From a virus, in the IMG/VR virus record IMGVR_UViG_3300045988_126112, positions 32,001-96,000 of that record: 64,000 nt of DNA. One strand, 5' to 3'. Of the stretch, positions 1,193 to 62,616 are shown piece by piece (positions within the stretch are counted from its first letter, which is position 1; each line of letters opens with the position of its first letter). The notes beneath the pieces are model-generated. The model was not told where the DNA came from. It was given only the letters and a program-made list of their open reading frames with translations, and searched no databases. Made by a program: the position numbers and the translations under genes.

Positions 1193-1210
1193 TTATATAT
1201 TATATAAGTG
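1193..1210 (+). promoter_or_regulatory. Class-A phage promoter-like motif (T[TC]ATATATTATA-N3-RTG)
   Basis: TTATATATTATATAAGTG, 41 nt before the ATG at 1251. Confidence 0.55.
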
Positions 1211-1250
1211 TCATAATATAATATATATAAATTTAAGGAGGTAAAATATT

Positions 1251-1496
1251 ATGAAAAAATTAGAAATAGTAAAATTAATGTTAAAGAATAATTATAAATT
1301 TGCTGGAGAAGTATCTGGAGATACAGTAAATGAAAATGCAAAGTATGCGGATTGTGCATACTACGATAAATATCTTACTTTTAAGAAAGATGGAGAAACA
1401 TTATTTATAAATTCTTATAAAGGAGCATTAGGAAGAAGAATAATTAGAATATTTGAAAACGGTAGCTATAGAACATACGCTACTGATTTACTATAA
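1251..1496 (+). CDS. Hypothetical protein (81 aa)
   Basis: AAGGAGGT SD; preceded by a class-A promoter-like motif and followed by a terminator at 1499..1528. Confidence 0.8.
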   Translation: MKKLEIVKLMLKNNYKFAGEVSGDTVNENAKYADCAYYDKYLTFKKDGETLFINSYKGALGRRIIRIFENGSYRTYATDLL

Positions 1497-1498
1497 TA

Positions 1499-1528
1499 AA
1501 TAGGGTCGAAAGACCCTATTTATTTTTT
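1499..1528 (+). terminator. Intrinsic terminator
   Basis: AATAGGGTC-GAAA-GACCCTATT followed by TATTTTTT. Confidence 0.8.
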
Positions 1529-1547
1529 GCTTATTTCTGTTTATAAT

Positions 1548-1560
1548 AACATACTATTAA
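1548..1560 (+). promoter_or_regulatory. Class-L (AACA-type) promoter-like motif
   Basis: AACATACTATTAA, 35 nt before the ATG at 1583. Confidence 0.3.
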
Positions 1561-1582
1561 TTCAAGAAAGGAGGTAACTTAT

Positions 1583-2764
1583 ATGACTGCTAAAAAAGGT
1601 GATGTCATACTTAAACAGATATACCCTAAAGTAAGTAATAAGATTAAGAATAATCAAAGTAAATATAAACAATGTCTTGCTAGATTTGTAGATAAACGTT
1701 CTACAGAATTATATGATATTGCTCCATGTGATAGAATATATTTTGGTATAGAAGACTTGGAAGATTATTATAAATCTACTGGAATAAATGAAAAAGAAGT
1801 TGAATCAGCTTTATCAAATACTTACTATGCTGATATAGGAAACTTTAATCCAAGAGCTGCTAAAGACCCTTTTACTATAGCACAATTATGTGTCGTACGT
1901 TATTATTTTTTGCAAAAGAAACAAAAAGAATTAGAAGTATCTTGTATATATTTAGCATTTTCTGGAAAGTTTTATCCATCAATACATCATGGGTCTTTCC
2001 CAAAAGTTCAGCCATCTGAATATAGACACGTGATGGAATATGTAATAAACAATGAGCTATCTAATAAGTATGATATAAAATCACAAGGAAGTGTATTTAA
2101 AGCTGTACTTAGTATTTGTAATACTTGGATAAAAACATATGATGATAGATTTAAATCTTTTGAAGATGAAGATTGTGTTTATCTTATACAACAACTTCAT
2201 GATAGAATTAAATCATTTATGAAGAATATAGCTGAAATATATTATAGAGTATATGCTGATAAAGACAAATATTTAGCTTATAGTAGTGATAATCTAAGTG
2301 ATGATAATTATAGAATAGCTGATAATGATTCTTTAAGAATTGAAAGATGTGTTGAAAATACAATGAGCTATATAAATAATACATCAGTAGATTATAAGTT
2401 ATGTAAAATGACTTCAGACAGTAACGTAAAAACAGATGAAGTCAAAAGTATAATAGAAAGTATATTAAACAATAATGATAATGTACCAGAAATAAAAGAG
2501 CTGGTAAGAATTATAATAGCTGAGTATTTTGTAAATTCAAAAACTAAAGATGTAAGGGATATAGATTTCATTACGAAATCTATTACACCAAAACCTAATA
2601 CAAAAAATACAAATATACTTAGGGAAAAACAAATAATTGAAGGATGGTTATGCGAAAATAGTAGTGCTTATATGAGAAGACGTAGCAGAGAAGCTACAAA
2701 AAACAGTTACTTTAAATCAGTACTTACATATTTCGTATTACTAATTCATAATTCTAATAAATAA
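1583..2764 (+). CDS. Hypothetical protein (393 aa)
   Basis: AAAGGAGGT SD; long ORF with no recognisable motif. Confidence 0.85.
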   Translation: MTAKKGDVILKQIYPKVSNKIKNNQSKYKQCLARFVDKRSTELYDIAPCDRIYFGIEDLEDYYKSTGINEKEVESALSNTYYADIGNFNPRAAKDPFTIAQLCVVRYYFLQKKQKELEVSCIYLAFSGKFYPSIHHGSFPKVQPSEYRHVMEYVINNELSNKYDIKSQGSVFKAVLSICNTWIKTYDDRFKSFEDEDCVYLIQQLHDRIKSFMKNIAEIYYRVYADKDKYLAYSSDNLSDDNYRIADNDSLRIERCVENTMSYINNTSVDYKLCKMTSDSNVKTDEVKSIIESILNNNDNVPEIKELVRIIIAEYFVNSKTKDVRDIDFITKSITPKPNTKNTNILREKQIIEGWLCENSSAYMRRRSREATKNSYFKSVLTYFVLLIHNSNK

Positions 2765-2778
2765 TGGAGGGATATATT

Positions 2779-3369
2779 ATGGAAGAAAGATTAAAAAACA
2801 ACTTATTCAAATTCGATTCTATGGGAAAAATAGAATGCAACAAACTTGTTAATGTAGAATGTAGTAATGATAAGGTAATCATTACTAATAACAATAACCT
2901 TACTAAAGGTTTAAGATTTTATGAAACAGTAAATGACGTTGCTGTGTGTGAAATTATAGATAAACTTGTAGTTGAACCAAACTTAATATCTATCTATAAA
3001 GATGGTGAGCTTTCTAGAAGTTTAGATTTAAATAACATGGAAACTCTAGAATTGGATGCTATAGAAAATACAGATGATAATAGCACAGAAATAACTTGCT
3101 CTTATACTTTAACTAAAGAAGCTATAGAAAGAACTGAACAAGAAAGAGAAACTGAACCAGAAAGTGAAGAAATTGAAGTTCATATAAATCAAATACTACC
3201 TAATTATATGGAACATTTAAACACTTTCTTAAACTTACAAATAATAGAATATAATAAATTATTACTATCTCTTCTTAATCCTAATTTAAAAGTAGAAGGA
3301 TTACTTGATAGTATAACTATATTACCACAAGATGTTACTATAGAAGATTTAAATAAAGAAGAAAAATAA
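2779..3369 (+). CDS. Hypothetical acidic protein (196 aa from the second ATG)
   Basis: GGAGGG lies 7 nt before the ATG at 2779. The track start 2764 sits inside the SD. Confidence 0.75.
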   Translation: MEERLKNNLFKFDSMGKIECNKLVNVECSNDKVIITNNNNLTKGLRFYETVNDVAVCEIIDKLVVEPNLISIYKDGELSRSLDLNNMETLELDAIENTDDNSTEITCSYTLTKEAIERTEQERETEPESEEIEVHINQILPNYMEHLNTFLNLQIIEYNKLLLSLLNPNLKVEGLLDSITILPQDVTIEDLNKEEK

Positions 3370-3392
3370 TTTCATTAAGGAGGATTTATATT

Positions 3393-7188: not shown

Positions 7189-8307
7189 ATGATATCAATT
7201 AAAGTATTAGGAATAGGAGCAGCAGGAAATAAAGCAGCTGCACAATTAATTAAAAGTGGAGTATTAGAAGAATCTTCAGTAAGATTAATAAATAGTACTC
7301 TAGGAGATGTACCAGACGAATTTCAACAAATAGCAATAGCATTAAGTTCTGTTGATGCTGGTTGTGGTAAAGAAAGATCAATGGCTAAAAACTTAGCTAT
7401 ACAAGCACTTAAAACTAACTTAGGAAGAGAGTTAGCTGAATTAATAACAGATGAAGATAGATTAGTTGTTATAACTACTTCAACTGGTGGTGGAACAGGT
7501 GCAGGTTCTTCATTAATTATAGGACAATATATACAAGAAGTATTAGGTAAAAAAGTAATGATTTATGCATTTACAGGATTTGAAGAAGATGCTAGGGAAC
7601 TTAAAAATACTGTAGAATTCTTCAAAGAAATAAATCCAAGCTTTATAGTTCAAGCTACATCAAATAAGAAATTCTTAGATGAAGCACCTAATAAATTAAA
7701 AGCAGAAGAATTAGCTAATAATGAATTCTGTAATAGAATGAATATAATTACAGGACAAGGAATAGTTAACTCTACTCAAAATATAGACGAAACTGACTTA
7801 TTCAAAATAATAACAACTCCAGGTTATATGGATGCAGGATTTATATCAATGTCTAAACTAAAAAATACTGAACAATTTAATTCAAATATAGTTAATTTCT
7901 TAGATGAAAGACATTCATTAGAAACTTCTAAATCTGCTAAAAGATTAGCTGTAGTTGTTAACTTACAAGATAAATATCAAGATTTTGTAGATTATAAATT
8001 TACTCCATTAAAAGATAGATATGGTGTTCCATTTGAAGTATTCAATCATGTACAAGATGTTCAAGAAAACTTAAGTGATTGTATATGGTTTATATCTTCA
8101 GGAATGGCTATGCCTTTAGATGAAGTACAAGAAATATATGATAAATATATAGAAGAAACAAATAAGATAAATAAAGCTCAAGATAATTTTTTTGATGTAG
8201 CTAATCAAATGGTATCTGAAGATATAGATGATATGTTTGATATAAATACTACTGCAAATAAAGCATCAACTACAAAGACAGCTGAATCATTCTTTGAAAA
8301 CTTATAA
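7189..8307 (+). CDS. Tubulin/FtsZ-superfamily GTPase (PhuZ/TubZ-like)
   Basis: N-terminal IKVLGIGAAGNKAAAQL (G-box 1), tubulin signature TSTGGGTGAGSS, and an acidic C-terminal tail SEDIDDMFDIN. TAGGAGGT SD. Confidence 0.8.
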   Translation: MISIKVLGIGAAGNKAAAQLIKSGVLEESSVRLINSTLGDVPDEFQQIAIALSSVDAGCGKERSMAKNLAIQALKTNLGRELAELITDEDRLVVITTSTGGGTGAGSSLIIGQYIQEVLGKKVMIYAFTGFEEDARELKNTVEFFKEINPSFIVQATSNKKFLDEAPNKLKAEELANNEFCNRMNIITGQGIVNSTQNIDETDLFKIITTPGYMDAGFISMSKLKNTEQFNSNIVNFLDERHSLETSKSAKRLAVVVNLQDKYQDFVDYKFTPLKDRYGVPFEVFNHVQDVQENLSDCIWFISSGMAMPLDEVQEIYDKYIEETNKINKAQDNFFDVANQMVSEDIDDMFDINTTANKASTTKTAESFFENL

Positions 8308-8320: not shown

Positions 8321-8338
8321 TTATATATTATAAACGTG
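8321..8338 (+). promoter_or_regulatory. Class-A phage promoter-like motif
   Basis: TTATATATTATAAACGTG, upstream of 8374. Confidence 0.55.
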
Positions 8339-8373
8339 TAATAAAATAATAATATATAAAGGAGATGTTATTT

Positions 8374-9285
8374 ATGTTTGAAAGAATGATAAACAACGAT
8401 TTTTTAAAAGAGGGTATGCCATTGCCAGACCCTAAACCATTACACAAAATTACATTTTTGGATAATCCTAAACTTTATCCAGATATGTATAAAGAAAAAT
8501 TTCAAAATTTAGATGCATTAGAAGTAAATGAAATATACAATATATTGGAAGGCAGTATAAGTGTAATATTAGAAAGAGCTGCAGATAATGAAGAATTTGA
8601 AAAAGACTTATTGAAGAATGATAAAATCTTAAATATATTATTGCGTTTATTTGTTGACAATTCTTCAAAAGGTTCTTATTTAGATTATATTTCTTTGTAT
8701 AGATTCAATTCAATAGCTGTATATTGTTTTGAAAATGTACCTAATTTAGCTAATATGTATATCCAATTAGGATACTATGCTAATAAATATATGATAGACA
8801 AAATAACTCCAATAGGAGAAGTTAGTCAAGAAGATGTAACTAAAATGATGTTATATTTTCTTAGAGGTGGTGACCCATTAAGTAATATAGTAAGATTGAA
8901 TAATTATGTTATAAAACTACCTAACAAGATTATCACAGATTATTATATGCTTAGATTGTATGAAACATTATGTTCCGATTTAGGTTTAGTAGGTTTATCT
9001 GCTATAGCTAAATCAGTATTGTTTGATTTTAATATTATAACAAATGATAATGAAAATAAAAATATGAGTGCTATGATTAATGCAGTATTATCATTGATAG
9101 ACCAAAATCCATCAATAACTAGAACTGTATTACTTGATATATATAATTATGCATCAACACCATTAAATGGAAAATACAGAGGTATGAGAATTAGTTTATC
9201 TAAAGGATTATCTCCAAGTGAATTTCCAATGTTATGTCAAACAATAAATTTATTGATGATGCAAGAACAAATATACTTACCATAA
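8374..9285 (+). CDS. Hypothetical protein (303 aa)
   Basis: GGAG lies 9 nt before the ATG at 8374; a class-A motif is at 8321..8338. Confidence 0.8.
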   Translation: MFERMINNDFLKEGMPLPDPKPLHKITFLDNPKLYPDMYKEKFQNLDALEVNEIYNILEGSISVILERAADNEEFEKDLLKNDKILNILLRLFVDNSSKGSYLDYISLYRFNSIAVYCFENVPNLANMYIQLGYYANKYMIDKITPIGEVSQEDVTKMMLYFLRGGDPLSNIVRLNNYVIKLPNKIITDYYMLRLYETLCSDLGLVGLSAIAKSVLFDFNIITNDNENKNMSAMINAVLSLIDQNPSITRTVLLDIYNYASTPLNGKYRGMRISLSKGLSPSEFPMLCQTINLLMMQEQIYLP

Positions 9286-11030: not shown

Positions 11031-11048
11031 TCATATATTATATGAGTG
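11031..11048 (+). promoter_or_regulatory. Class-A phage promoter-like motif
   Basis: TCATATATTATATGAGTG, upstream of the RNAP beta C-half gene. It runs directly into the hairpin at 11044..11067. Confidence 0.55.
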
Positions 11049-11067
11049 ATAGAGAAATCTATCACTC
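11044..11067 (+). other. 24-nt A-GAAA-U-capped hairpin between the promoter motif and the SD
   Basis: GAGTGATAG-AGAAAT-CTATCACTC. No proper T-run follows; the SD is 10 nt downstream. Confidence 0.6.
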
Positions 11068-11092
11068 ATCTTTAAGGTAGGAGGATAGTAAT

Positions 11093-13294
11093 ATGAAAAT
11101 TGATGTTATCGACAAAGTAAAGGAAATGGAGGATCAATTTCCTTCAATGGAGTATTTATTATGTAAAGGATTGATGATGCCATTCAATCCTTCAAATTCA
11201 GGTAGTAGAAAACAAATGATGGCAGCTCAACTTGAGCAAGGATTAGAGTTATATCATTCTGAATTACCAAGAGTACAAACTGGATATGAAAATAGATTTG
11301 GTGACAGATCTTCTTCATTAATAATTGCAGATAAAGAGTATGTGGTAGTTCACAAAATAAGTAAATTTAGTTTTGATCCAGATAGATTCTATTATCTAAT
11401 TATCTATGATACTAAGGGTAATTCATTTGATATGATTACTAAACAAGAGTATCAATATATAACAGAATCTTATGGAATCTTATACAATACAAAATATATG
11501 GATAAACTTAGACCAGGTGTTAAGATTAATAAAGGTGATACAATAAGAAAATCTTTAGCTTATGATGAATTTAATAATAGATGTGATGGTGTAAATCTTA
11601 TGTCTACTTATTTATCATCAGAAGAAACAAAAGAAGATGGTATTTGGATTTCTGAAACAGCTTCTAAGCTATTGGCGTGTCCATTAGTAAAGAAAGTACA
11701 AATTCAAATAAATGATAATGATATACCATTAAATCTGTACTATGATGATGTAGAAAGAGATTATAAATCATTTCCAGATGTAGGTGAAAATACAGATAGA
11801 ACTAATGGTGTATTAATGGGTATAAGACGTATGAAGAAAGAAGAAATACTATTCACTCAAAACAAAAATAATTTATCAAAAATAATGCTTAGTGATGATG
11901 TATTTACAGCTTCAGGAACTGTAGTAGATGTTGATATATATTGTAATAATCCAGAAACATTATCAAAATATGTTCATTTTGGACAATTACAATTTTATCA
12001 TCAAGAACAAATGGCTTTCATGAATGATTTTATATCTAAAGTTGGTCCATTGATAGAGTCTGGATATAATTGCTCTTATGAGATGAAAAAATTATATCAT
12101 AGATTCAAAAAGATATATTATGGTGGGCAATATCTTAAAGATAATGTCTTCTCAAATACAATATTAGAATTGACATTAGTTGAATATAATCCAGTTGAAG
12201 TTGGTGATAAGATAGCTAACAGATATGGAGGTAAAGGTGTTGTATCAAAAATAAGTCCAGATAATATGATGCCTTTATTAGATAATGGTAGAAGGGTAGA
12301 TTTAATCTATAATGGTTCTACTTGTATAAATAGAGAGAATAATGGACAATTAAATGAAATGTTTCTTAATTATGCAAGTAATAGAATTGTGGATCATGTA
12401 AGAAGTTTAGATGGTTCATTTGACTTAAATTATACTATAAATCTATATATAGATTATCTTAATATTCTTAATCCTAATTTAGCTGAAAGAATGGAGCAAT
12501 ATATACTTTCAGCAGAATTGGATGACCAAGTTGCATTTATGCAATATATATTTGATGAAGGATTTATACTTTCATTAGACCCTATGTGTGATATCAATAT
12601 AGATACATTATATAAGATTTGGAAGAAATTCGGATTCATAAAACAATACAATGTTGTTGTACCTCAAATAGGTTCAGATGGTAATTATAGATATGTAAAA
12701 ACTAGAAGAACTCTTGAATGTGGTGAACAATATATTTGGCGTTTAAAACAATATGCTGAAGAAAAGTTTTCTACAGTTTCATTATCAGCAACAAACTTAA
12801 AAAATGAAAATACTAGAAACAGCAGTAAGAAATCATATAAATCTCCACATGCAAAAACTTGTGTAAGATTTGGTGATATGGAAACTGGTAATATGCTTCA
12901 TTTAGGTATAGAACCATTGATTACAAATCTAATGATGCTATCTTTAGCACCTAAAGCTAGAAGAAGATTAGGAACTGAATTAACTGAAGGTCCTTTATTT
13001 GATTTAGATGTTAAACTTCATCCTGAAGATAGTAACAGAAGTGTAGAAATATTGAATGCTTATCTTATAACTATAGGATTGAAACTTACTTTTACTAAAG
13101 TGCCTAAAAAGTTTATATATCCTATAAAATATAATATAAATGGTGTTCCAGTTTTAAATAAAGATGATACTACTTATCATCCTGCAATAACTTATATTGA
13201 TAAGAAAGGAAATCAATTTATAGGAGATTATGAACCTGTAAATCCTATAGATAATTTAAAAGAAGTTATTCATTGGAACAGAAAGGAAAAATAA
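11093..13294 (+). CDS. Multisubunit RNA polymerase beta subunit, C-terminal half
   Basis: GDKIANRYGGKGVVSKI (compare GDKMAGRHGNKGVIS), DLIYNGSTCINRENNGQLNEM (compare DIVLNPLGVPSRMNIGQ), YIWRLKQY and VRFGDMETGNM (compare RFGEMEVWAL). Confidence 0.85.
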   Translation: MKIDVIDKVKEMEDQFPSMEYLLCKGLMMPFNPSNSGSRKQMMAAQLEQGLELYHSELPRVQTGYENRFGDRSSSLIIADKEYVVVHKISKFSFDPDRFYYLIIYDTKGNSFDMITKQEYQYITESYGILYNTKYMDKLRPGVKINKGDTIRKSLAYDEFNNRCDGVNLMSTYLSSEETKEDGIWISETASKLLACPLVKKVQIQINDNDIPLNLYYDDVERDYKSFPDVGENTDRTNGVLMGIRRMKKEEILFTQNKNNLSKIMLSDDVFTASGTVVDVDIYCNNPETLSKYVHFGQLQFYHQEQMAFMNDFISKVGPLIESGYNCSYEMKKLYHRFKKIYYGGQYLKDNVFSNTILELTLVEYNPVEVGDKIANRYGGKGVVSKISPDNMMPLLDNGRRVDLIYNGSTCINRENNGQLNEMFLNYASNRIVDHVRSLDGSFDLNYTINLYIDYLNILNPNLAERMEQYILSAELDDQVAFMQYIFDEGFILSLDPMCDINIDTLYKIWKKFGFIKQYNVVVPQIGSDGNYRYVKTRRTLECGEQYIWRLKQYAEEKFSTVSLSATNLKNENTRNSSKKSYKSPHAKTCVRFGDMETGNMLHLGIEPLITNLMMLSLAPKARRRLGTELTEGPLFDLDVKLHPEDSNRSVEILNAYLITIGLKLTFTKVPKKFIYPIKYNINGVPVLNKDDTTYHPAITYIDKKGNQFIGDYEPVNPIDNLKEVIHWNRKEK

Positions 13295-15678: not shown

Positions 15679-15696
15679 TTATATATTATAAGTATG
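15679..15696 (+). promoter_or_regulatory. Class-A phage promoter-like motif
   Basis: TTATATATTATAAGTATG, upstream of 15752. Confidence 0.55.
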
Positions 15697-15751: not shown

Positions 15752-16399
15752 ATGAAAGTAAACTTAAAAGAAAGCCAATTATTAGTTCAATTAGTAGAAA
15801 ACGTGAGTAGAGTTCAAGGTCTAAGAATATCTGATGTTAACTGGGAAATGATGATAGAAGATCTTAGTACAGCTATTTACAAATTCTTAGCTATAGCTAA
15901 GGATAAAGACAAAAAAGTAGCATTAGTATTTACTGATGCATCAGAAGCTCATAACTTCTTAATAGCAGCTATCATTGAATATCATAAAAATGATGATTCA
16001 GATGAAGTTGGAGGAAACTGGAGCTTCGTTTATACATTCAACAAAGAAGATGTAACTGACTGTGAAATCATTCATGCGAATGACCCTAAATTCATACAAG
16101 CTTTTAATGATGTAACTAGTGAATCATTAAAAGATAAACATGGTGATATGACAGGTTATACAGTAGACGGAATGATAGTAACTAAAATATTTGAAGCTAT
16201 ATTTAAATATCTAAAAATATGGCTAGACACTAACGCTAGAACAGATGAGGTTGTAGACTTAGTTTTAGAAGACCACTTTGAAGCATCTGTAGCAGTAGAA
16301 GATGGAATCAAAGTAATGTCTATGGTCCCACATGGTAGAGCTAAGTCTCAAATAAAAGATGACGATGCTGTATCACAAGATGTAAGCTTAGATAAATAA
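15752..16399 (+). CDS. Hypothetical acidic protein (215 aa)
   Basis: TAGGAGGA SD, its own class-A motif upstream and a terminator downstream (monocistronic unit). Confidence 0.85.
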   Translation: MKVNLKESQLLVQLVENVSRVQGLRISDVNWEMMIEDLSTAIYKFLAIAKDKDKKVALVFTDASEAHNFLIAAIIEYHKNDDSDEVGGNWSFVYTFNKEDVTDCEIIHANDPKFIQAFNDVTSESLKDKHGDMTGYTVDGMIVTKIFEAIFKYLKIWLDTNARTDEVVDLVLEDHFEASVAVEDGIKVMSMVPHGRAKSQIKDDDAVSQDVSLDK

Positions 16400-19299: not shown

Positions 19300-19317
19300 T
19301 TATATATTATATATGTG
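19300..19317 (+). promoter_or_regulatory. Class-A phage promoter-like motif
   Basis: TTATATATTATATATGTG, upstream of 19347. Confidence 0.55.
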
Positions 19318-19346
19318 TAATAAAATAATATATTGGGGGTAATAAT

Positions 19347-19682
19347 ATGAATTTACTTGAAAGAAGAGAACAAAGAAGAAAAATCAGAAGAAAGATAGCT
19401 TGGACAATGGCAACAATAGGAGTAGTATTTTTAACTGGTTCTGCTATATTAAATGCTTACAGTAGAACTCATGTAATGAAATATACAAGTAATGAATTTG
19501 ATGTAGTAGATAAGATAGAACTAGATACAGGATGGTTTGACCATCATGTAATATATGAAATTAGAGTAAAAGATACAGGAGCTCATTACTATCTAACAGA
19601 TAAAGGTGAATTAGTTCCTGTGTATGGCTTTAATGGAGATATTAAAACTAGTGAATCTTTAGACGAAAAGAAAGATAAATAA
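19347..19682 (+). CDS. Membrane-anchored hypothetical protein (111 aa)
   Basis: Arg/Lys-rich N-terminus then a TM segment (IAWTMATIGVVFLTGSAILNAY). GGGGGT SD; terminator downstream. Confidence 0.8.
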   Translation: MNLLERREQRRKIRRKIAWTMATIGVVFLTGSAILNAYSRTHVMKYTSNEFDVVDKIELDTGWFDHHVIYEIRVKDTGAHYYLTDKGELVPVYGFNGDIKTSESLDEKKDK

Positions 19683-22550: not shown

Positions 22551-22587
22551 CCCCTAGCTATAATTAGCTAGGGGTCTTTTATTTTTT
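22551..22587 (+). terminator. Intrinsic terminator at the convergence point with minus-strand gene 22586..23521
   Basis: CCCCTAGCTA-TAAT-TAGCTAGGGG followed by TCTTTTATTTTTT. Confidence 0.8.
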
Positions 22588-23521: not shown

Positions 23522-23580
23522 TTTCATTCCTCCTTAAATAATCATTTAATGTTATGTTTCAATGATTAATTATGATATAA

Positions 23581-23598
23581 TCATATATTATATTCTGG
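23581..23598 (+). promoter_or_regulatory. Class-A phage promoter-like motif (variant 3' part)
   Basis: TCATATATTATATTCTGG, upstream of the DNA polymerase gene. Confidence 0.45.
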
Positions 23599-23618
23599 TA
23601 TACTTTTAAGATTATAAA

Positions 23619-23631
23619 AACAATATATTAA
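23619..23631 (+). promoter_or_regulatory. Class-L (AACA-type) promoter-like motif
   Basis: AACAATATATTAA, 38 nt before the DNA polymerase start; an identical 13-mer is at 33826. Confidence 0.3.
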
Positions 23632-25670: not shown

Positions 25671-25688
25671 TTATATATTATAACTATG
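25671..25688 (+). promoter_or_regulatory. Class-A phage promoter-like motif
   Basis: TTATATATTATAACTATG, inside repeat cassette copy 1. Confidence 0.55.
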
Positions 25689-26379: not shown

Positions 26380-26397
26380 TCATATATTATTTAAATA
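26380..26397 (+). promoter_or_regulatory. Class-A-like motif, variant core ATATATTATT
   Basis: TCATATATTATTTAAATA, upstream of the helicase gene. The same variant (GTATATATTATTTAAA) occurs at 57144..57159, upstream of 57176. Confidence 0.4.
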
Positions 26398-27990: not shown

Positions 27991-28008
27991 TTATATATTA
28001 TATACTTG
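27991..28008 (+). promoter_or_regulatory. Class-A phage promoter-like motif
   Basis: TTATATATTATATACTTG, upstream of 28071. A 5'-UTR hairpin at 28031..28054 follows. Confidence 0.5.
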
Positions 28009-29347: not shown

Positions 29348-29365
29348 TTATATATTATATTAGTA
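29348..29365 (+). promoter_or_regulatory. Class-A phage promoter-like motif
   Basis: TTATATATTATATTAGTA, upstream of 29404. Confidence 0.45.
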
Positions 29366-29691: not shown

Positions 29692-29709
29692 TTATATATT
29701 ATACATATA
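29692..29709 (+). promoter_or_regulatory. Class-A phage promoter-like motif
   Basis: TTATATATTATACATATA, upstream of 29727. Confidence 0.5.
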
Positions 29710-32418: not shown

Positions 32419-32435
32419 TTTATTATAATAGTGTT
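32419..32435 (-). promoter_or_regulatory. Class-L (AACA-type) promoter-like motif, minus strand
   Basis: The minus strand reads AACACTATTATAATAAA, 38 nt before the prohead protease start. Confidence 0.3.
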
Positions 32436-32478: not shown

Positions 32479-32496
32479 TTATATATTATAACTATG
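32479..32496 (+). promoter_or_regulatory. Class-A phage promoter-like motif
   Basis: TTATATATTATAACTATG, inside repeat cassette copy 2. Confidence 0.55.
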
Positions 32497-32966: not shown

Positions 32967-32984
32967 TTATATATTATATAAGTG
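32967..32984 (+). promoter_or_regulatory. Class-A phage promoter-like motif
   Basis: TTATATATTATATAAGTG, upstream of 33027; identical to the copy at 1193. Confidence 0.55.
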
Positions 32985-40186: not shown

Positions 40187-40204
40187 TCATATATTATATA
40201 GGTG
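40187..40204 (+). promoter_or_regulatory. Class-A phage promoter-like motif
   Basis: TCATATATTATATAGGTG, upstream of 40237. Confidence 0.55.
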
Positions 40205-40236
40205 AAATAAAATAAATATATTGGAGGTAATACAAT

Positions 40237-45492: not shown

Positions 45493-45510
45493 TCATATAT
45501 TATAATATTG
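45493..45510 (+). promoter_or_regulatory. Class-A phage promoter-like motif
   Basis: TCATATATTATAATATTG, upstream of 45525. Confidence 0.5.
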
Positions 45511-49903: not shown

Positions 49904-50380
49904 ATGAAAAAAAGAGTAAATGTAAAAATTAATGGTCCAATATATACTGTAAGACCTATAATACAAAGAAGTCTTATGAATGTAGAAATGACTGAAGGAG
50001 ATATAAGAAATTGTATATGCTCTAATGCTATGGTTGAAGAAATATTAGAAGATGGTAGTAGAGTTCCTTTAGGATTACACAACTATAATAAAGATAACAA
50101 TAAAAAGAAAAAACCTCAACCTACACCTGTAGTTCCTAAACCTCAACCTCAACCTAAGCCTCAACCTAAACCTGAGCCTAAAAAAGAAACTCCAGCTGTA
50201 AATGTAAAAATAAAAGAGGATAATAGACCTAAAGAAGAAGTTAAAAAAGTTGAACCACAAGTTCAAAAGAAACCATATGTAAAACCTGCTATGGAAATAA
50301 AAGAACAACCAGTTCAACCTAAAAAAGAAGAAGTAAAAGCTGAAGAAGTTAAAAAAGAAACTCAAGAAGAAAAAAAATAA
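49904..50380 (+). CDS. Protein with an N-terminal domain and a Pro/Lys/Glu-rich repeat tail (158 aa)
   Basis: TAAGGAGGA SD. Tail is PQPTPVVPKPQPQPKPQPKPEPKKE... Confidence 0.8.
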   Translation: MKKRVNVKINGPIYTVRPIIQRSLMNVEMTEGDIRNCICSNAMVEEILEDGSRVPLGLHNYNKDNNKKKKPQPTPVVPKPQPQPKPQPKPEPKKETPAVNVKIKEDNRPKEEVKKVEPQVQKKPYVKPAMEIKEQPVQPKKEEVKAEEVKKETQEEKK

Positions 50381-50405
50381 TTTTTGATTCATTCATAACA
50401 AGTGA

Positions 50406-50431
50406 GCTACAAGGATAGTTATCCTTGTAGC
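50406..50431. repeat. Near-perfect 26-bp palindrome / hairpin
   Basis: GCTACAAGGATA-GT-TATCCTTGTAGC with 12-bp arms. Confidence 0.9.
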
Positions 50432-50450
50432 CCTCAGCTTTGTTATTTGA

Positions 50451-50476
50451 CTATTGATATTAATTAATATCAATAG
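50451..50476. repeat. Perfect 26-bp palindrome
   Basis: CTATTGATATTAATTAATATCAATAG is identical to its reverse complement. Confidence 0.9.
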
Positions 50477-50607
50477 GGGAAATATTTAGATACAAATTGT
50501 ATCTATAATATTTAATACATATTATGCTCTTATTTAGAGCCCTCCTATTATTTTAAATACATAGTTCTTATTGCTTGATGGAAGATTATATTATACATTA
50601 TTAATTA

Positions 50608-50646
50608 TTAATCTTCCTCCCATCCCATAGTTTGGTTATCATCCAT
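50608..50646 (-). CDS. Candidate 12-codon micro-ORF (MDDNQTMGWEED)
   Basis: GAGGGGAGGTG lies 5 nt before the ATG on the minus strand, 50 nt downstream of a minus-strand class-A motif. Coding is unproven. Confidence 0.3.
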   Translation of the reverse strand: MDDNQTMGWEED

Positions 50647-50695
50647 GATATCACCTCCCCTCGTTGTTAATATACATTGAAGGAACTATGTATTA

Positions 50696-50713
50696 CATAA
50701 TTATAATATATAA
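50696..50713 (-). promoter_or_regulatory. Class-A phage promoter-like motif on the minus strand
   Basis: The minus strand reads TTATATATTATAATTATG. It lies just downstream of the beta-prime gene stop and points into the ORF-free island. Confidence 0.5.
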
Positions 50714-50729: not shown

Positions 50730-52436
50730 TTACAATTTACCTAATTTAACATCTTTAGTTATATTATTTCCAGGTATATGAATAGTTAAACTATATAAAG
50801 CTTGTATACATTCGTGACTAGGATTTCTTGCATTCTTTCCACCTAAGTTAATATAGTTTTTCTTTGAATTAGCAAATTTTTCTAATTCAGCATTTGCTTC
50901 TTTTGTAAATGCTACTTTAGCTGTAACTTGGTCACCATCATAGTCACCACCTATTGCTTCAAGATATAGATTGGATAGATTTAAAGTATCCATAAATTTA
51001 TTACTAGTATCCTTACCTATATCTTCTTCTCTTATCTTAGGATAATATTTATAAAATGTATTATTTACATACATTGGTTCTGTTTCTTTAGTTGATGATA
51101 CTCTTATTTTTGTAGTAAACTGATTAAAGTAACTATCCATAGGATATCTAGTTATTATTACATTTTTATCTTTAGAAACTTCTTCACAAGCCATAAATAT
51201 TAAATCACACCAAGTTAATCTTCTTCTAAATAATGGTGTAACATCTCCACTATCTTTATTTTTTAAAGCTTCATATTCATCTACAGAATAACCATTAAAT
51301 CTCATCCATACAGTTCTTTTTTCATCTTCTAAAGGAACTTGTATAGGTATAAATCTATTAGAGAATCCCTTCATAAATCTTTCAATTTCTTCTTTTATTC
51401 TTGTATCAGAAAATGCTATTAGAGGGTCTTTTACTTTTAAATATTCAATTTCACCTTTTTTATTTCTTACTGGATAATCTTTTGTACTAAATTCATTTTC
51501 AAAAAATCTTCTTATCCAGAATATAATAAATGGGAATAAGTTTGAGCATAAAGATGATAAAGGTATACATGTATAATCTAGAGTAGTTTTCATATCATCT
51601 AGGCTTTCTACTTTTAATTCTGGTGCAGATAATACAAGTCTAGTACCATAATCTGTAGTTTTAGATAATACTGATTGTCTAATTATACCATATTTTCCTG
51701 ATAATCCTTTACCAGCTTCTTTATCTTTAGAAGTTCCTGTGAACCATTGATATAGTTTAACTATAGTATTTTGTATTCTACCTCTAACAGCATTAGACAT
51801 ATTTAATCCATAATCTGCTGTTTCTTTTAAACTTCTTACTCCTAAGATAAGTTGATTATAAATTTTATTTATTTCACCTACTGTAACATATCCACCAGTA
51901 TTATTTACATCTCTATAATATGCTGGAATAACAAGCATTTGTTTTATAAACATTTTATCCCTAGTTTCTTCTAAGAATTTTATTTTAGTTTCCCTCTTAG
52001 ATGATTCTGTATGTTTAAATTTAATTTTATCAATATTAGCTTTAAGCCATTTAATACCATTATCTCCATTATCATCTTGAACAAATTGTCCGTCTTTATC
52101 TATTATAAATGTATCTGTACCATTTACAACTTCAGATAATTTTCTATCCATACTATTCCATATAATATAATATAATGGATGAATAAAGTATTCACTAAGA
52201 TCTATATAAGCAAATATATTAGCTCTCTGATCTTTAGTAATACCAAAAATTTCATTAGATAAAAGACCATCACTAGTTGGTATATTATCTCTAACAAAAA
52301 ATATTGGATTTGTAATCTCTCTAAGCTTATTCTTCTTTATAAGCTTATCTACATCTAATAAATCAAAATGAGCATGTCTTTCAGCAGCTTCATTTAATGA
52401 TTCTATAGCGTGTCTTTCTAATTCTTCATAATTCAT
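50730..52436 (-). CDS. Multisubunit RNA polymerase beta-prime subunit, N-terminal half (with catalytic loop)
   Basis: EIFGITKDQ...AYIDLSEYFIHPLYY (compare IFGP.KD...GHIELA.PV.H.W), LVIPAYYRDV (compare PVLPPDLRP), LSGKYGIIRQSVLSKTTDYGTRLVLS (compare [25 protein letters not shown]), IGGDYDGDQVTAKV (compare NADFDGDQMAVHV). Confidence 0.85.
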   Translation of the reverse strand: MNYEELERHAIESLNEAAERHAHFDLLDVDKLIKKNKLREITNPIFFVRDNIPTSDGLLSNEIFGITKDQRANIFAYIDLSEYFIHPLYYIIWNSMDRKLSEVVNGTDTFIIDKDGQFVQDDNGDNGIKWLKANIDKIKFKHTESSKRETKIKFLEETRDKMFIKQMLVIPAYYRDVNNTGGYVTVGEINKIYNQLILGVRSLKETADYGLNMSNAVRGRIQNTIVKLYQWFTGTSKDKEAGKGLSGKYGIIRQSVLSKTTDYGTRLVLSAPELKVESLDDMKTTLDYTCIPLSSLCSNLFPFIIFWIRRFFENEFSTKDYPVRNKKGEIEYLKVKDPLIAFSDTRIKEEIERFMKGFSNRFIPIQVPLEDEKRTVWMRFNGYSVDEYEALKNKDSGDVTPLFRRRLTWCDLIFMACEEVSKDKNVIITRYPMDSYFNQFTTKIRVSSTKETEPMYVNNTFYKYYPKIREEDIGKDTSNKFMDTLNLSNLYLEAIGGDYDGDQVTAKVAFTKEANAELEKFANSKKNYINLGGKNARNPSHECIQALYSLTIHIPGNNITKDVKLGKL

Positions 52437-55988: not shown

Positions 55989-56006
55989 TTATATATTATA
56001 GATATG
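55989..56006 (+). promoter_or_regulatory. Class-A phage promoter-like motif
   Basis: TTATATATTATAGATATG, upstream of 56072. Confidence 0.55.
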
Positions 56007-56071: not shown

Positions 56072-56557
56072 ATGTTAAACTTATATTGTGTAAACGTTTT
56101 CAAAGGGGAAATATTAGAAGGACAAAAATTTATAGTAGCAGATACAGCAGTAGAAGCTAAAGAAAAAGCAAGAGATAATGTAGAAAGATGTCAAGAATTT
56201 GATTATGTTCCTGTAAGAATTATAGCTAATACTGGAAAAGTATTTCCAGTTAAAAAAGATGAAGTAATGGATGAATTCAAAAATCCAACTTACGGAGATA
56301 ATTCTATAATTATAGATGAATACAATATATCTATAATAGAATTCCAAGATGAAAATGACTGCGAAGGACTAGAATTAACTTATGATATAGTAAAATCAAA
56401 TGAATTTTCATTAGTTATGCGTGATGGACATGATTTATTCAATTCATTAGTAGAAGATGGAACTATTGATAGAAACTCTACTAAAGAATATAGCATAATA
56501 GCTACAAATAAAAGAACTGAAGAAGTTCAAAGAGTTTATATTAAAATCAATAAATAA
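56072..56557 (+). CDS. Hypothetical protein (161 aa), paralog of 57464..57943
   Basis: AAGGAGGT SD. N-terminus LYCVNVFKGEILEGQKFIVADTAVEAKEKA compares with LYILLIEREGIVEGQLIVSAKSITEAVNIG. Confidence 0.85.
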   Translation: MLNLYCVNVFKGEILEGQKFIVADTAVEAKEKARDNVERCQEFDYVPVRIIANTGKVFPVKKDEVMDEFKNPTYGDNSIIIDEYNISIIEFQDENDCEGLELTYDIVKSNEFSLVMRDGHDLFNSLVEDGTIDRNSTKEYSIIATNKRTEEVQRVYIKINK

Positions 56558-56643: not shown

Positions 56644-57183
56644 ATGGATGGAAAGATATCTATATATAGTAATGAAGAACAAATAAACAAAATTAAAGAA
56701 AAATTAGAAATTTCAACAGATGCTGATTACATTTATGTAGTCAGTCAGACTGAATATCCATTAGAAATGGATGAAAAAGGAATACAAAAAACAGTTATGA
56801 AATGTAATGAATTTCTAACTGTAGTTGAATATATCTTTAAAAGAAATTACATATATGTAATTTTATTAAAAGAAAACGAATATGATTATGAAGAAAACGA
56901 ATTACCTATTATTGAATCAAATGATAAATACTATGCAGGATATGAAATAGGTACTTATAGATATAATGCTCCTATGAGCTGTTATTATGATAAATATCAA
57001 AATGAAATAGGCTTTAAAGCTATATTAAGAGATTTAAATTTATTAAACAATAAAGGTTGGTTAGTACATTCTGTAGAAGAATATATTGATTACGACATTA
57101 TATTATTTAAAAGTATTAAGAAAAGTAATTTTTATAATAAAATGTATATATTATTTAAAACAAAGGAGGATATCAATGAATGA
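56644..57183 (+). CDS. Hypothetical protein (179 aa)
   Basis: GAGGGTG lies before the ATG at 56644 (track start 56629 sits inside the SD). Confidence 0.75.
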   Translation: MDGKISIYSNEEQINKIKEKLEISTDADYIYVVSQTEYPLEMDEKGIQKTVMKCNEFLTVVEYIFKRNYIYVILLKENEYDYEENELPIIESNDKYYAGYEIGTYRYNAPMSCYYDKYQNEIGFKAILRDLNLLNNKGWLVHSVEEYIDYDIILFKSIKKSNFYNKMYILFKTKEDINE

Positions 57184-57442
57184 TTTTGATGAAGCAAGTT
57201 TAAGTGTAGAAGAAATGCTTAAAGATATTGAAAAAGAAAAAAAGATAAATAAAATAGAAAGAATAGAAGCATTAATAGTTAGACATATAAGAGCACATAT
57301 CATTATAGATTTAAAAGAAAATTTCTATAATGTGCATATTAAAAGAAGTGATAGATTGTCTTATGATGATATAGCCAAAAAATGGAATGTATCAACAAAA
57401 TATGTAAAAAATATAGCCGAAGAAACAGGCTATACAATATAA
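57176..57442 (+). CDS. Small protein with a C-terminal helix-turn-helix-like segment (88 aa)
   Basis: AAAGGAGGA lies 6 nt before the ATG at 57176. LSYDDIAKKWNVSTKYVKNIAEE looks like an HTH. Confidence 0.5.
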   Translation: MNDFDEASLSVEEMLKDIEKEKKINKIERIEALIVRHIRAHIIIDLKENFYNVHIKRSDRLSYDDIAKKWNVSTKYVKNIAEETGYTI

Positions 57443-61433: not shown

Positions 61434-61448
61434 ACTTTATTATTTCAA

Positions 61449-61466
61449 TTATATATTATAATAATG
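61449..61466 (+). promoter_or_regulatory. Class-A phage promoter-like motif
   Basis: TTATATATTATAATAATG, upstream of 61484. Confidence 0.55.
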
Positions 61467-61483
61467 ATAGGGAGGTGATGATA

Positions 61484-61588
61484 ATGAAACTAACTATAAA
61501 AGAGCTAAATATCTTAGCTCAAATTAATCCTGATATGAAAATAAAGGATTTAATTAAAGCAGTAGAAAAAGAAAATAAAAATAAATAA
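61484..61588 (+). CDS. Hypothetical small protein (34 aa), below the track cutoff
   Basis: TAGGGAGGTG lies 5 nt before the ATG. Translation MKLTIKELNILAQINPDMKIKDLIKAVEKENKNK; class-A motif at 61449..61466. Confidence 0.55.
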   Translation: MKLTIKELNILAQINPDMKIKDLIKAVEKENKNK

Positions 61589-61607
61589 AAAGGGAGAGTG
61601 TAGAATT

Positions 61608-62213
61608 ATGGCTATAAAAATTAACAAAGATAGTATAGAATTAACAGGAAAGGAATTTGACATAGTGAGAGGATTTATTGAAATGAATCAAAATGGGGAA
61701 TTAAGTTTAAATTTAGGCAATAAAGATATTACAAATGATGAATATACTATGCCTTCACTAGATGTTGAAGTTATGATGAATACCAGATCTATTTTAAATA
61801 GAGTGGATGGAAACAACCACTATTTAAATTTTGGTGATAAAAACTGTACAGATAAAGAAAAGAAAAAATTATTAGAAAAATTTCTAAATAAAATAGATAG
61901 ACCTGATTTATTAGATACTTTATGTGATGCTTCTGATGATGATATTATAATGGATATATTAGCAGGAACATTAAATATTAGAACTGATGCAGTAAAAGTC
62001 CTATCTATTTTAGATAATATAAATAATTTTATAGGGTTTAAAAACTTTATGTTATTTATATTAGACTTTATAAATTATGAAGATAAATGTAATCATATGG
62101 GACTTGGTAATCCTATGGTTTCACATATTGATAAATACGGAAAATGTGAGATGTGTGGAAAAATTATACCACACGATTCACTAATGATTGCAAAAATGCT
62201 TGAATTAATTTAA
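61608..62213 (+). CDS. Hypothetical protein (201 aa) with a C-terminal CxxC...H
   Basis: AAGGGAGAG SD. C-terminal motif is CEMCGKIIPH. Confidence 0.8.
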   Translation: MAIKINKDSIELTGKEFDIVRGFIEMNQNGELSLNLGNKDITNDEYTMPSLDVEVMMNTRSILNRVDGNNHYLNFGDKNCTDKEKKKLLEKFLNKIDRPDLLDTLCDASDDDIIMDILAGTLNIRTDAVKVLSILDNINNFIGFKNFMLFILDFINYEDKCNHMGLGNPMVSHIDKYGKCEMCGKIIPHDSLMIAKMLELI

Positions 62214-62224
62214 CTAAAAAAGGG

Positions 62225-62542
62225 ATGATTGAGTTGAAACTTATTTACACAAAAAGGCAATTCAAAGTGTTCTATAGTGAAGAACACAAAAATTATCTAG
62301 TATTGAATGTAAAAAAATCTTTTAATGAAGGTCACACACATATTCAACACTATAACCAAACTTTGTATTTAATAGATTGTGTAATTAAGAATAAAATACC
62401 AAAGAAATGCAATAAATATTTTCTAGTTAGTTTAACTAGATTGGCTAAAGATAAAAAATATATAGAAAGAATTGAAAGAGTTCTTAATGGGGAAGAACCT
62501 AAGCAAAGCTATAGGAACGTCCCTAAGAACTTTAGAAAATAA
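62225..62542 (+). CDS. Hypothetical basic protein (105 aa)
   Basis: AAAAAGGG precedes the ATG at 62225 (in-frame TTG at 62234 is an alternative); terminator downstream. Confidence 0.7.
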   Translation: MIELKLIYTKRQFKVFYSEEHKNYLVLNVKKSFNEGHTHIQHYNQTLYLIDCVIKNKIPKKCNKYFLVSLTRLAKDKKYIERIERVLNGEEPKQSYRNVPKNFRK

Positions 62543-62547
62543 CAAAT

Positions 62548-62580
62548 AAAAGAGGTATTAAGTTACCTCTTTTATTTTTT
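62548..62580 (+). terminator. Intrinsic terminator
   Basis: AAAGAGGTA-TTAAG-TTACCTCTTT followed by TATTTTTT. Confidence 0.8.
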
Positions 62581-62598
62581 GCCAAAACTATTAAATAA

Positions 62599-62616
62599 GT
62601 ATATATTATATTAATA
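62599..62616 (+). promoter_or_regulatory. Class-A phage promoter-like motif
   Basis: GTATATATTATATTAATA, upstream of the GNAT/P-loop ORF. Confidence 0.45.

Follow-up and report, generated by a model that had tools for sequence, protein, structure and literature searches.

The window analysed here is a 64 kb stretch (64,000 nucleotides) of the genome (roughly 230-260 kb, 26% GC) of an uncultivated jumbo phage. It carries 20 copies of an AT-rich motif that very probably constitutes an early-promoter class read by the packaged virion RNA polymerase (vRNAP), the counterpart of the AR9/PBS1 early promoter. The type is already known from experiments on Bacillus phage AR9, where dRNA-seq and primer extension defined the early promoter as AAATATATATTAT-(6N)-G+1 (Lavysh et al. 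2017, PMC5312081), and the window adds a further example of it. The sequence-only reading had proposed a single temporal class of promoters for a phage multisubunit RNAP, and this is supported by the RNAP subunits encoded in the window and by a core identical to that of the mapped AR9 promoter. It had also held that the enzyme and time class could not be told from sequence. Homology, however, points to the virion RNAP and the early class because the motif has a non-virion RNAP (nvRNAP) subunit gene behind it and is missing before structural and vRNAP genes, and because late genes are preceded by a second class that fits the AR9 late consensus. The enzyme, the early timing and the exact start site are predicted; start site, timing and independence of rifampicin and chloramphenicol are extrapolated from AR9, to which the kinship is distant (only ~30% amino-acid identity in RNAP subunits, no detectable DNA similarity).

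Both split beta/beta' RNAP sets are represented, with one subunit each (virion and non-virion) within the window. The gene at 11093-13294 has as its best match AR9 g089, annotated 'non-virion RNAP subunit, beta C-terminus', is also matched by the MarsHill 'non-viral RNA polymerase beta', and encodes the C-terminal half of the nvRNAP beta subunit (beta-C); it is followed by an NAD ligase gene, the same order as in AR9. The minus-strand gene at 50730-52436 aligns to AR9 g145 ('virion RNAP subunit, beta' N-terminus') across all three of its exons, and to the Madawaska 'viral RNA polymerase beta-prime'.

The motif is enriched in non-coding DNA, which makes up 4.3 kb of the window against 59.7 kb of coding DNA. 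The two strands together hold 25 exact copies of ATATATTATA (6.2 expected; maximum of 13 in 100 whole-window dinucleotide shuffles). The flanked form T[TC]ATATATTATA has 17 copies, 16 on the plus strand and one on the minus strand, all of them intergenic, as had been claimed. A comparison of intergenic with coding DNA corrected for composition had been asked for and was made by shuffling each intergenic segment on its own 1000 times with dinucleotides kept. The pattern ATATATTAT-N6-G, which is defined by the literature, was found 15 times in non-coding DNA (mean expected 0.31, maximum 3) and T[TC]ATATATTATA 17 times (0.26 expected, maximum 4). Coding DNA has no excess of either (3 versus 2.4 and 0 versus 1.3 expected, respectively). 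With 15 copies against 0.31 and no coding excess, the refutation by lack of enrichment that the sequence-only reading had envisaged fails. The two variants it listed, at 26382 and 57146 (ATATATTATT), are both present, and the copy at 62601 has the flank GT. Its three unflanked core copies in coding sequence (2237, 49334 and 63983) are there as well, but they are not the only ones, as further minus-strand copies exist: one at 59737 in coding DNA, one at 40895 that straddles the start codon of the plus-strand gene at 40903, and two (1217 and 32994) that are reverse complements within the 5' leaders of the units at 1195 and 32969.

The consensus of the 20 sites is R-T-[T/C]-ATATATTATA-N3-[R/T]-T-G, with an invariant AT-rich block at about -15 to -6 relative to the predicted start. 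Across the aligned sites the core does not vary, and the N6 position after ATATATTAT holds G in 15 of the 20 and A in 4. A recount of the triplets after N3 gave the earlier figures (GTG 6, ATG 6, TTG 2), the others being TGG, GTA, ATA (three sites) and AAC. The RTG had been placed near the start site; its G lies exactly at N6, as does the AR9 +1, and this G, 6 nt after ATATATTAT, is the predicted start. The purine 2 nt upstream is possibly a second one, since AR9 has alternative starts at N4 and N6 where both are purines (Table S2: g159 GtG, g265 GtA, g120; PMC5312081), which makes R and G of the RTG both start candidates. In two structured leaders the helices start 1-6 nt ahead of the predicted +1 G, so that the start may be the R, or the helices may act in read-through RNA. 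Some copies of the motif overlap palindromes.

The annotated early promoters of AR9 were also read directly in the AR9 sequence. The AR9/PBS1 promoter has the same 9-nt core ATATATTAT with the same spacing to the conserved G, a like place (12-120 nt before the start codon) and like gene classes behind it (nvRNAP subunits, DNA polymerase, helicase and small unknowns), with virion genes lacking the motif. AR9/PBS1 likewise has a second class, AACA-N6-TA/G, before late genes and an extra element 23 nt before the core in about a quarter of promoters. The 5' flank, in contrast, reads R-T-[T/C] in the window but A-A-R-N in AR9 (AAAT, AAGT, AGAT), so that, judged from the sequences compared, the flank differs from AR9 by lineage and the core does not. 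The core is followed almost always by A in the window, unlike AR9, and the T at -1 and purine at -2 (RTG) are conserved here and not in AR9. Related phages of the same group with a bioinformatically predicted AT-rich motif have the same TATATTAT core, compared on the core alone, and are among the best GenBank protein matches of the window. According to reviews, every RNAP-encoding jumbo phage has an AT-rich motif of ~10 nt centred near -10 before early operons (PMC7598289; PMC13282480). The promoters of phiKZ-like vRNAPs follow a like logic, in which an injected sigma-less multisubunit RNAP is paired with a conserved AT-rich element, the start lies a few nt downstream of the element, as is predicted here, and nvRNAP genes are among the targets (PMC7598289; PMC13282480). 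Their consensus varies between phages, and TATG, the late motif of phiKZ, does not resemble AACA-N6-TA (PMC7598289). Early transcripts of both AR9 and phiKZ are made within minutes and need neither new protein synthesis nor host RNAP (PMC5312081; PMC13282480).

The genes downstream of the motif are, as claimed earlier, mostly small unknown genes and genes of replication and transcription, including nvRNAP beta-C, DNA polymerase and helicase. The first predicted plus-strand promoter, TTATATATTATA-taa-GTG at 1193..1210 (23.3 bits by position weight matrix, PWM), precedes an 81-aa gene (1251-1496). The next candidate, at 8321..8338, lies before 8374-9285 (303 aa), the gene after a tubulin-like gene, and that at 11031..11048 before the nvRNAP beta C-half and NAD ligase genes. 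They are followed on the same strand by sites at 15679..15696 (before 15752-16399, 215 aa, the next gene after the ligase), 19300..19317 (before 19347-19682, 111 aa) and 23581..23598, where TGG replaces RTG, before the family-B DNA polymerase gene (23657-25609). The putative promoter at 25671..25688 lies before 25795-26145, and the variant TCATATATTATT-taa-ATA at 26380..26397 (17.0 bits) before the helicase gene (26425-27978). Further plus-strand candidates are found at 27991..28008 (TTG; before 28071-29234, 387 aa), 29348..29365 (GTA; before 29404-29628, 74 aa), 29692..29709 (ATA; before 29727-30401, 224 aa), 32479..32496 (before 32604-32882), 32967..32984 (before 33027-33377, 116 aa) and 40187..40204 (before 40237-40821, 194 aa, with a terminator just upstream). 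At 45493..45510 (TTG), before 45525-47042 (505 aa), the Shine-Dalgarno sequence starts right after the predicted +1. The candidate at 55989..56006 precedes 56072-56557 (161 aa), that at 61449..61466 a small ORF (61484-61588) and the gene 61608-62213, and the variant with a GT flank and ATA at 62599..62616 a gene starting at 62637 with acetyltransferase/kinase-like matches. A weak variant at 57144..57161 on the plus strand, GTATATATTATT-taa-AAC, is doubtful; it lies inside the 3' end of 56644-57183, before 57176-57442, and has the lowest PWM score of the set (9.1 bits).

The distance from core end to start codon, earlier given as 25-60 nt, is actually 20-113 nt; the copies at 25673 and 32481 have leaders of 107-108 nt, both of them conserved (107 and 108 nt, respectively). 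The copies had also been described as each oriented with a downstream gene. This does not hold for the minus-strand copy (50713-50696; predicted promoter 50696..50713), which lacks a real gene downstream: it is followed by a 12-codon mini-ORF (50646-50608) with a strong Shine-Dalgarno sequence, and in the ~200 nt past it there is no ORF longer than 26 aa before the stretch ends at a terminator between convergent genes. Terminators number 17 in all (3.3 expected), several directly upstream of motif copies, and a terminator-like hairpin with a T-run lies just upstream of 8 of the 20 promoters.

Within the window, the motif does not precede the major head gene (37121), the protease gene (31561, minus strand), the vRNAP beta' gene or the virion protein genes at 30786 (minus strand) and 48363, and the SbcC-like, UvsX-like and primase genes have no motif of their own. 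The second class, AACA-N6-TA, has 13 sense copies (3.6 expected) and 3 antisense, and 8 of the 13 lie 25-47 nt before an ATG, those of the protease and major head genes included. Candidate late (nvRNAP) promoters are found on the minus strand at 32424..32435, before the head maturation protease gene, and at 23547-23558, before the gene 22586-23521, and on the plus strand at 729, 1548, 23619, 33826 and 37074. The motif is retained before orthologs in ~7-8 relatives (L002-L007, L014 and L015), although individual sites are uncertain because it carries little information. The vRNAP beta' gene and the virion-protein gene at 48363 are without AACA-N6-TA. Early and late motifs both precede the DNA polymerase gene, and also its ortholog in L014 (an early core copy plus the late motif). 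It is very unlikely that the early motif is instead a promoter of the nvRNAP, of a middle or continuous class. Such a reading could draw on the doubly equipped DNA polymerase gene and on the fact that assignment of an enzyme to the motif sites in this clade rests on homology. However, an nvRNAP subunit gene sits behind the motif, so the nvRNAP is not required for its own first expression; the separate class that matches the AR9 nvRNAP consensus AACA-N6-TA precedes late genes; and the identical core drives transcription in AR9 within 5 min and also under chloramphenicol (PMC5312081). Under the preferred assignment to the virion enzyme, an RNAP of split beta/beta' fragments with no sigma factor would travel inside the virion, be injected along with the DNA, and bind the motif sites without new protein synthesis or host RNAP. 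It would transcribe short units, many bounded upstream by an intrinsic terminator, that encode nvRNAP subunits, replication enzymes and many small unknown proteins. The resulting nvRNAP would then read the second class, AACA-N6-TA, before structural genes.

Still less likely are host sigma-A promoters of a strong or extended -10 type, with host RNAP reading the early genes as in SPO1-like phages. The motif had been judged unlike a sigma-A -35/-10 pair, and there is indeed no conserved -35 (information ≤0.4 bit from -45 to -21), but the core holds TATTAT at -12 to -7 of the conserved G. This resembles the sigma-A/sigma-70 -10 (TATAAT) and would serve well as a sigma-A -10 hexamer, so host RNAP may fire there to some extent. 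A TTGTAA-like sequence is also present upstream in six copies; it lies 19-21 nt from any -10-like hexamer, however, which is too far for sigma-A (16-18 nt), and the invariance over 10-12 positions is far beyond the need of a sigma-A -10 element. In a scan of the window, sigma-70-like sites were not enriched (153 versus 153.5 expected). The AR9 core is identical, AR9 early transcription proceeds without new protein and its infection is independent of host RNAP (PMC5312081; PMC13282480), and its upstream element CGTATYAAA is unlike TTGACA. It is scarcely credible that the motif is a DNA-binding protein site, a replication/packaging signal or an intergenic RNA-processing site: sequence alone does not tell promoters apart from other oriented signals between genes, and palindromes underlie some copies, but the motif keeps a strict place between terminator and Shine-Dalgarno sequence, co-oriented with the next gene at about 12-108 nt from its start codon, it faces only the plus-strand gene in divergent gaps (DNA polymerase at 23657, with site 23581..23598 facing away from 22586-23521; the small gene at 32604, with site 32479..32496 facing away from the protease gene), and the identical AR9 motif has mapped primary 5' ends (PMC5312081).

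The early promoter is conserved in relatives. A PWM derived from the window sites was run against nine syntenic genomes, whose beta-C identity ranges from 72% to 42%. Seven of them gave 27 matches at ≥14 bits, all 27 on the gene strand and 26 with the exact core; the other two gave, at ≥13 bits, 10 gene-strand matches (exact core in 8) plus 3 weak antisense ones. All 34 exact-core gene-strand matches are intergenic and co-oriented, with a Shine-Dalgarno sequence and an ORF behind each. Upstream of beta-C the site is retained at the ortholog in 8 of 8 genomes despite diverged flanks, and the orthologous positions of 8321..8338 and 15679..15696 are retained in L002, L003 and L004 and in L004-L008, respectively.

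An additional '-38 element', TGTAAAA[CG]T (CGTATYAAA in AR9), is carried by 6 of the 20 promoter copies, where it spans -38 to -30 at a fixed offset of 23 nt from the core. The copy at 1172..1180 (plus strand) starts exactly 23 nt before the core of the first promoter, and the others are at 25650 (25650-25658), 29327 (29327-29335), 32458 (32458-32466), 32946 (32946-32954) and, on the minus strand, 50734 (50734-50726), giving the bipartite form TT-TGTAAAAGT-N6-TTTYRA-TT-ATATATTATA-N3-RTG. In AR9, CGTATYAAA stands at the identical 23-nt offset before the core and marks the published 'pre-early' genes: the median 5-min/20-min FPKM ratio is 1.23 for promoters with it (n=8) and 0.21 for those without it (n=28; Mann-Whitney one-sided p = 1.1e-5). 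This link was not found stated in the main text of the AR9 paper (PMC5312081) or in the literature searched. By analogy with AR9, the -38 element probably marks the earliest-peaking ('pre-early') units here. It may be, although we put it somewhat short of an even chance, that the early class is two-tiered, with the bipartite form defining an immediate-early regulon of small proteins plus at least one apparently non-coding transcript. If so, the sigma-less virion RNAP, or a co-injected factor, would make a second sequence-specific contact ~38 bp upstream; this contact would have evolved together with the polymerase and would determine the order in which the very first transcripts appear. Among element-core pairs in IMG/VR, 76 of 112 have a spacing of exactly 23 nt.

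The window holds 25 exact copies of ATATATTATA, a written form of the AT-rich core of the motif, where 6.2 are expected. Gene calling by a Shine-Dalgarno-aware heuristic gave 81 genes (93% coding), and the expected counts that follow were taken from 1000 dinucleotide-preserving shuffles in which each intergenic segment was shuffled on its own. In the 4.27 kb of non-coding DNA, T[TC]ATATATTATA occurs 17 times against 0.26 expected (maximum of 4 in 1000 shuffles), and ATATATTAT-N6-G, a pattern taken from the literature and independent of the window, occurs 15 times against 0.31 (maximum of 3). Coding DNA (59.7 kb) has no excess of either pattern (0 vs 1.3 and 3 vs 2.4, respectively). A position weight matrix built from the window's 20 sites recovers 19 of them at a threshold of at least 14 bits and has no match in coding DNA at that score. 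The repeated intergenic motif described in a sequence-only reading of this DNA is thus borne out, as is the excess in intergenic over coding DNA, corrected for composition, that it had proposed as a check. Its counts of the triplets that follow the core after N3 were correct, and the unflanked core copies that it listed exist, together with a few more on the minus strand; leader lengths range more widely than the 25-60 nt it had given.

The motif very probably represents early promoters of the type known from Bacillus phage AR9, here in an uncultivated phage lineage, with enzyme and timing predicted from this likeness. In AR9, 41 early promoters were defined by dRNA-seq and primer extension, with the consensus AAATATATATTAT-(6N)-G+1; they were assigned to the injected virion RNA polymerase (RNAP) because transcription from them is seen at 5 min post-infection and is not stopped by chloramphenicol (PMC5312081). 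The nine-base core is the same in both phages and the G of the RTG triplet lies exactly six bases past it, and the annotation of early promoters in the AR9 record confirms this match in core and spacing. The flanks of the window motif differ from those of AR9, as the 5' flank is R-T-[T/C] rather than A-A-R-N and the window motif has A at -6 and a conserved T at -1. The AR9 table includes alternative starts at N4 and N6 if both are purines (g159 "GtG", g265 "GtA" and g120) (PMC5312081), and two possible start purines offer an explanation of the conserved R-T-G that would apply here by analogy. At 45495 a start further downstream is impossible, since a Shine-Dalgarno sequence begins immediately after the G. 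A reading of the motif as sigma-A promoters is rejected, as sigma-70-type pairs are at chance level (153 vs 153.5 expected). The interpretation as a phage-RNAP promoter class, offered by the sequence-only reading, is sound. The core specificity attributed to the virion RNAP, ATATATTAT-N6-G, is unchanged though the polymerase subunits are only ~30% identical between the phages, which constrains models of promoter reading by a sigma-less RNAP.

GC content is 26% along the entire window. Megablast with 8 kb found no nucleotide-level match among GenBank phages, and by these searches the phage is known at the protein level only, with matches of at most 35% identity to Bacillus AR9/PBS1, the Staphylococcus MarsHill/S6 group, Listeria LPJP1, Yersinia phiR1-37 and Fusobacterium JD-Fnp phages. 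These protein searches place it in the group of jumbo phages that have two multisubunit RNA polymerases, to which the phages just named belong. The ORF at 11093-13294 contains Rpb2 domain 6, and the AR9 protein closest to it is g089, whose annotation is the C-terminus of the non-virion RNAP (nvRNAP) beta subunit (beta-C); an NAD-dependent ligase gene is adjacent downstream in the window and lies five small genes further on in AR9. The minus-strand ORF at 50730-52436 carries the catalytic DYDGD motif and aligns to the three exons of AR9 g145, the N-terminus of virion RNAP beta'. Other identified genes encode a UvsX-like recombinase (9789), an SbcC-like ATPase (19760), a family-B DNA polymerase (23657), an SF2 helicase (26425), the major head protein (37121), a chaperonin (42917), a primase (47099), virion proteins (48363 and, on the minus strand, 30786) and a head protease (31561, minus strand). 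Beta-C has 1111 database homologs (E <= 1e-20), many of them on metagenomic contigs 200-260 kb long. The binning of one helicase homolog with a Peptostreptococcaceae MAG gives only a hint at the host. A PhuZ-like protein with a Pfam Tubulin domain is encoded by the syntenic orthologs of window gene 7189-8307 in six relatives (L002-L007); the window gene itself has no match in PHROGs. A protein of the dUTPase/dCTP-deaminase fold is encoded in L002, L003, L004, L008 and L014, and its gene adjoins the tubulin-like gene in L002-L004.

Behind the motif lie the beta-C/ligase unit, the genes for DNA polymerase and helicase (the latter with a variant copy) and ~15 small or unknown genes; PHROGs has no family for any of 14 genes directly behind it. 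It is absent before all five identified late-type genes, namely those for the major head protein, the protease, the two virion proteins and virion RNAP beta'. Two gaps, 23522-23656 and 32398-32603, separate divergent genes. In both, the motif is directed only at the plus-strand genes (DNA polymerase at 23657 and a small gene at 32604), away from the minus-strand genes. Terminator-like hairpins number 17 between 22000 and 41000 vs 3.3 expected, and several end 20-40 nt ahead of a motif copy. Examples ahead of early promoters lie at 25614-25643, 29245-29277, 29634-29674, 32897-32932 and 40135-40161, and such a hairpin with a T-run stands just upstream of 8 of the 20 promoters. Many units therefore consist of terminator, promoter, leader and gene, and, given this enrichment, many early genes look like single-gene units. 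A predicted initially transcribed sequence, [T/A]AATAAAATAA, is common to four promoters (8339-8350, 19318-19329, 28009-28020 and 40205-40216), and similar sequences follow promoters in the relatives L014, L015, L005 and L008.

The consensus of AR9 late promoters is AACA-(6N)-TA/G (PMC5312081). Across 3.86 kb of oriented upstream DNA, the window has 13 sense copies of AACA-N6-TA against 3.6 expected (maximum of 9 in 500 shuffles) and three antisense copies, and 8 of the 13 sense copies lie 25-47 nt from an ATG. Copies stand at 729-740, 1548-1559, 23619-23630, 33826-33837 and 37074-37085 on the plus strand and at 23547-23558 and 32424-32435 on the minus strand; the genes behind them include those at 769, 1583, 22586-23521 (minus strand) and 33863 and those for the protease and the major head protein. 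The DNA polymerase gene has both the early and the late motif upstream, the arrangement of AR9 genes that are "continuously expressed". The late motif is retained in relatives before the orthologs of gene 1583 (L002, L003, L005, L006 and L007) and gene 22586 (L004 and L014), before the DNA polymerase gene (L014) and before the protease gene and the ortholog of gene 33863 (L015). Among the internal arguments for the ATATATTATA class being early, this two-class layout is the strongest. The motif offers a means of assigning temporal class (early, late or both) from sequence in a large group of uncultivated low-GC jumbo phages.

Conservation was followed in nine syntenic metagenome loci, seven around beta-C and two around the helicase gene, with beta-C identity from 72% down to 42%. 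An IMG/VR protein-pattern search with beta-C found nothing, and the relatives were obtained through a protein database and contig look-ups. The seven beta-C loci have 27 matrix matches of at least 14 bits, all on the gene strand and 26 with the exact ATATATTATA/ATATATTATT core. The two helicase loci, at a threshold of at least 13 bits, have 10 gene-strand matches (8 with the exact core) and 3 weak antisense matches. The 34 exact-core gene-strand matches are without exception intergenic according to the deposited gene calls, and all have a Shine-Dalgarno sequence and an ORF downstream. The position of the motif is retained ahead of beta-C in all eight genomes, behind the tubulin-like gene in four and behind the ligase gene in six, and the intergenic sequence around the kept sites has diverged.

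Beside the patterns, statistics, gene associations and conservation observed for this phage, a mechanism can be proposed whose four steps are all inferred from the biology of AR9 and phiKZ. First, the sigma-less virion RNAP, once injected, would bind the AT-rich block at about -15 to -6 and would start at the G of RTG, or at the R two bases earlier. Its transcription would yield nvRNAP, replication proteins and small effectors, and nvRNAP would next read AACA-N6-TA. Two reviews (PMC7598289 and PMC13282480) contain no description of how the virion enzyme recognises its promoter.

A bipartite sub-class is formed by six of the 20 sites (1195, 25673, 29350, 32481, 32969 and, on the minus strand, 50711), in which TGTAAAA[CG]T (the -38 element) starts exactly 23 nt before the core. 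IMG/VR was scanned for pairs of this element and the core with the spacer left free at 6-20 nt. The spacer is 12 nt in 76 of 112 pairs, and any other length occurs in at most 6. At positions left unconstrained by the search, the 12-nt pairs have T at -1 (69 of 76) and G or A at +1 (75 of 76), and TTTYRA just ahead of the core is also conserved in them; in pairs with other spacers the triplet at the RTG position is random. The contigs involved are in many cases 130-330 kb long, and that of the relative L006 is among them. Five bipartite sites are present in IMGVR_UViG_3300012274_000057, which counts among the complete relatives (230-260 kb). The element is absent from the stretches of L014 and L015, and therefore not every relative uses it in the stretches examined.

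AR9 (KU878088.1), whose DNA contains dU, has a different element, CGTAT[TC]AAA, the first base of which again lies exactly 23 nt ahead of ATATATTAT, in eight early promoters (g047, g048, g069, g108, g120, g169, g234 and g292; variants at g190 and g253). This offset accounts for 8 of the 11 occurrences of CGTAT[TC]AAA in 166 kb of AR9. All eight genes that the AR9 authors termed "pre-early" lie in units headed by six of the element-bearing promoters. Taking the first gene behind each promoter in the FPKM table of the AR9 paper (PMC5312081), the median 5-min/20-min ratio is 1.23 with the element (n=8) vs 0.21 without (n=28; one-sided Mann-Whitney p = 1.1e-5). The link between element and pre-early expression, a testable claim on AR9, was not found in the main text of that paper (PMC5312081) or in the other literature searched, and may have been described in the AR9 genome paper of 2016. 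Only the bipartite sub-class and its parallel in AR9 take this analysis beyond what is already described. By this parallel, the six bipartite promoters are the foremost candidates for the first transcripts of the window. They serve proteins of 74-116 aa without assigned function and one apparently non-coding unit. In other phages, the first-expressed genes encode host-takeover and anti-defence functions. Units with the -38 element form a shortlist of the genes most likely to be expressed first.

Several elements accompany the promoters. A perfect hairpin of 10-18 bp lies directly past the promoter core in the beta-C leader (11043-11068) and upstream of beta-C in L002-L007; its presence in seven of eight genomes with different stem sequences constitutes covariation. 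MAFFT left these hairpins unaligned, and each leader was folded separately. The stem begins 2-6 nt upstream of the predicted +1 G, so that either beta-C transcription has a more upstream start or the hairpin has its effect in read-through RNA or at the level of DNA. Reverse-complement core copies on the minus strand at 1217-1226 and 32994-33003, without promoter flanks, lie within the leader, 12-15 nt past the 1195 and 32969 promoters, and form an inverted repeat with the promoter core. A conserved leader family of ~110 nt is found in the window (25686-25797 and 32494-32606) and in L003 (59-188 and 1369-1490). The 5' end of these leaders, UGACAUAGA, can pair with UCUAUGUUA ~70 nt downstream in a 9-bp helix enclosing a variable hairpin; the helix is invariant, shows no covariation and is hence uninformative. 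Paralogy as the cause of the shared upstream DNA is rejected: no similarity is detectable between the proteins encoded behind the paired promoters (1195/32969 and 25673/32481), and the conserved DNA is therefore a regulatory or leader part.

The sequence TTTTCTATGTTACT occurs five times, always intergenic and on the plus strand (1157, 25756, 29278, 32564 and 32931). Three copies stand between a terminator T-run and the -38 element, and two form the 3' arm of the leader helix. It was rejected as a general third motif, with two copies in L003 and none in L014 or L015, and its 9-nt core, CTATGTTAC, occurs only six times in 972 kb of IMG/VR loci. Rfam at gathering thresholds had no match in the whole window, including the long leaders and the transcript from 50711 (minus strand), and no tRNA was found in a scan over its full length. 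On the minus strand at 50381-50713, a full bipartite early promoter, which the sequence-only reading had taken to precede a gene, faces ~300 nt that contain no more than a mini-ORF of 12 codons (50646-50608), equipped with a strong Shine-Dalgarno sequence. This stretch, closed by a terminator-like hairpin that lies between the convergent genes 49904-50380 (plus strand) and 50730-52436 (minus strand), may be a small RNA or micropeptide unit.
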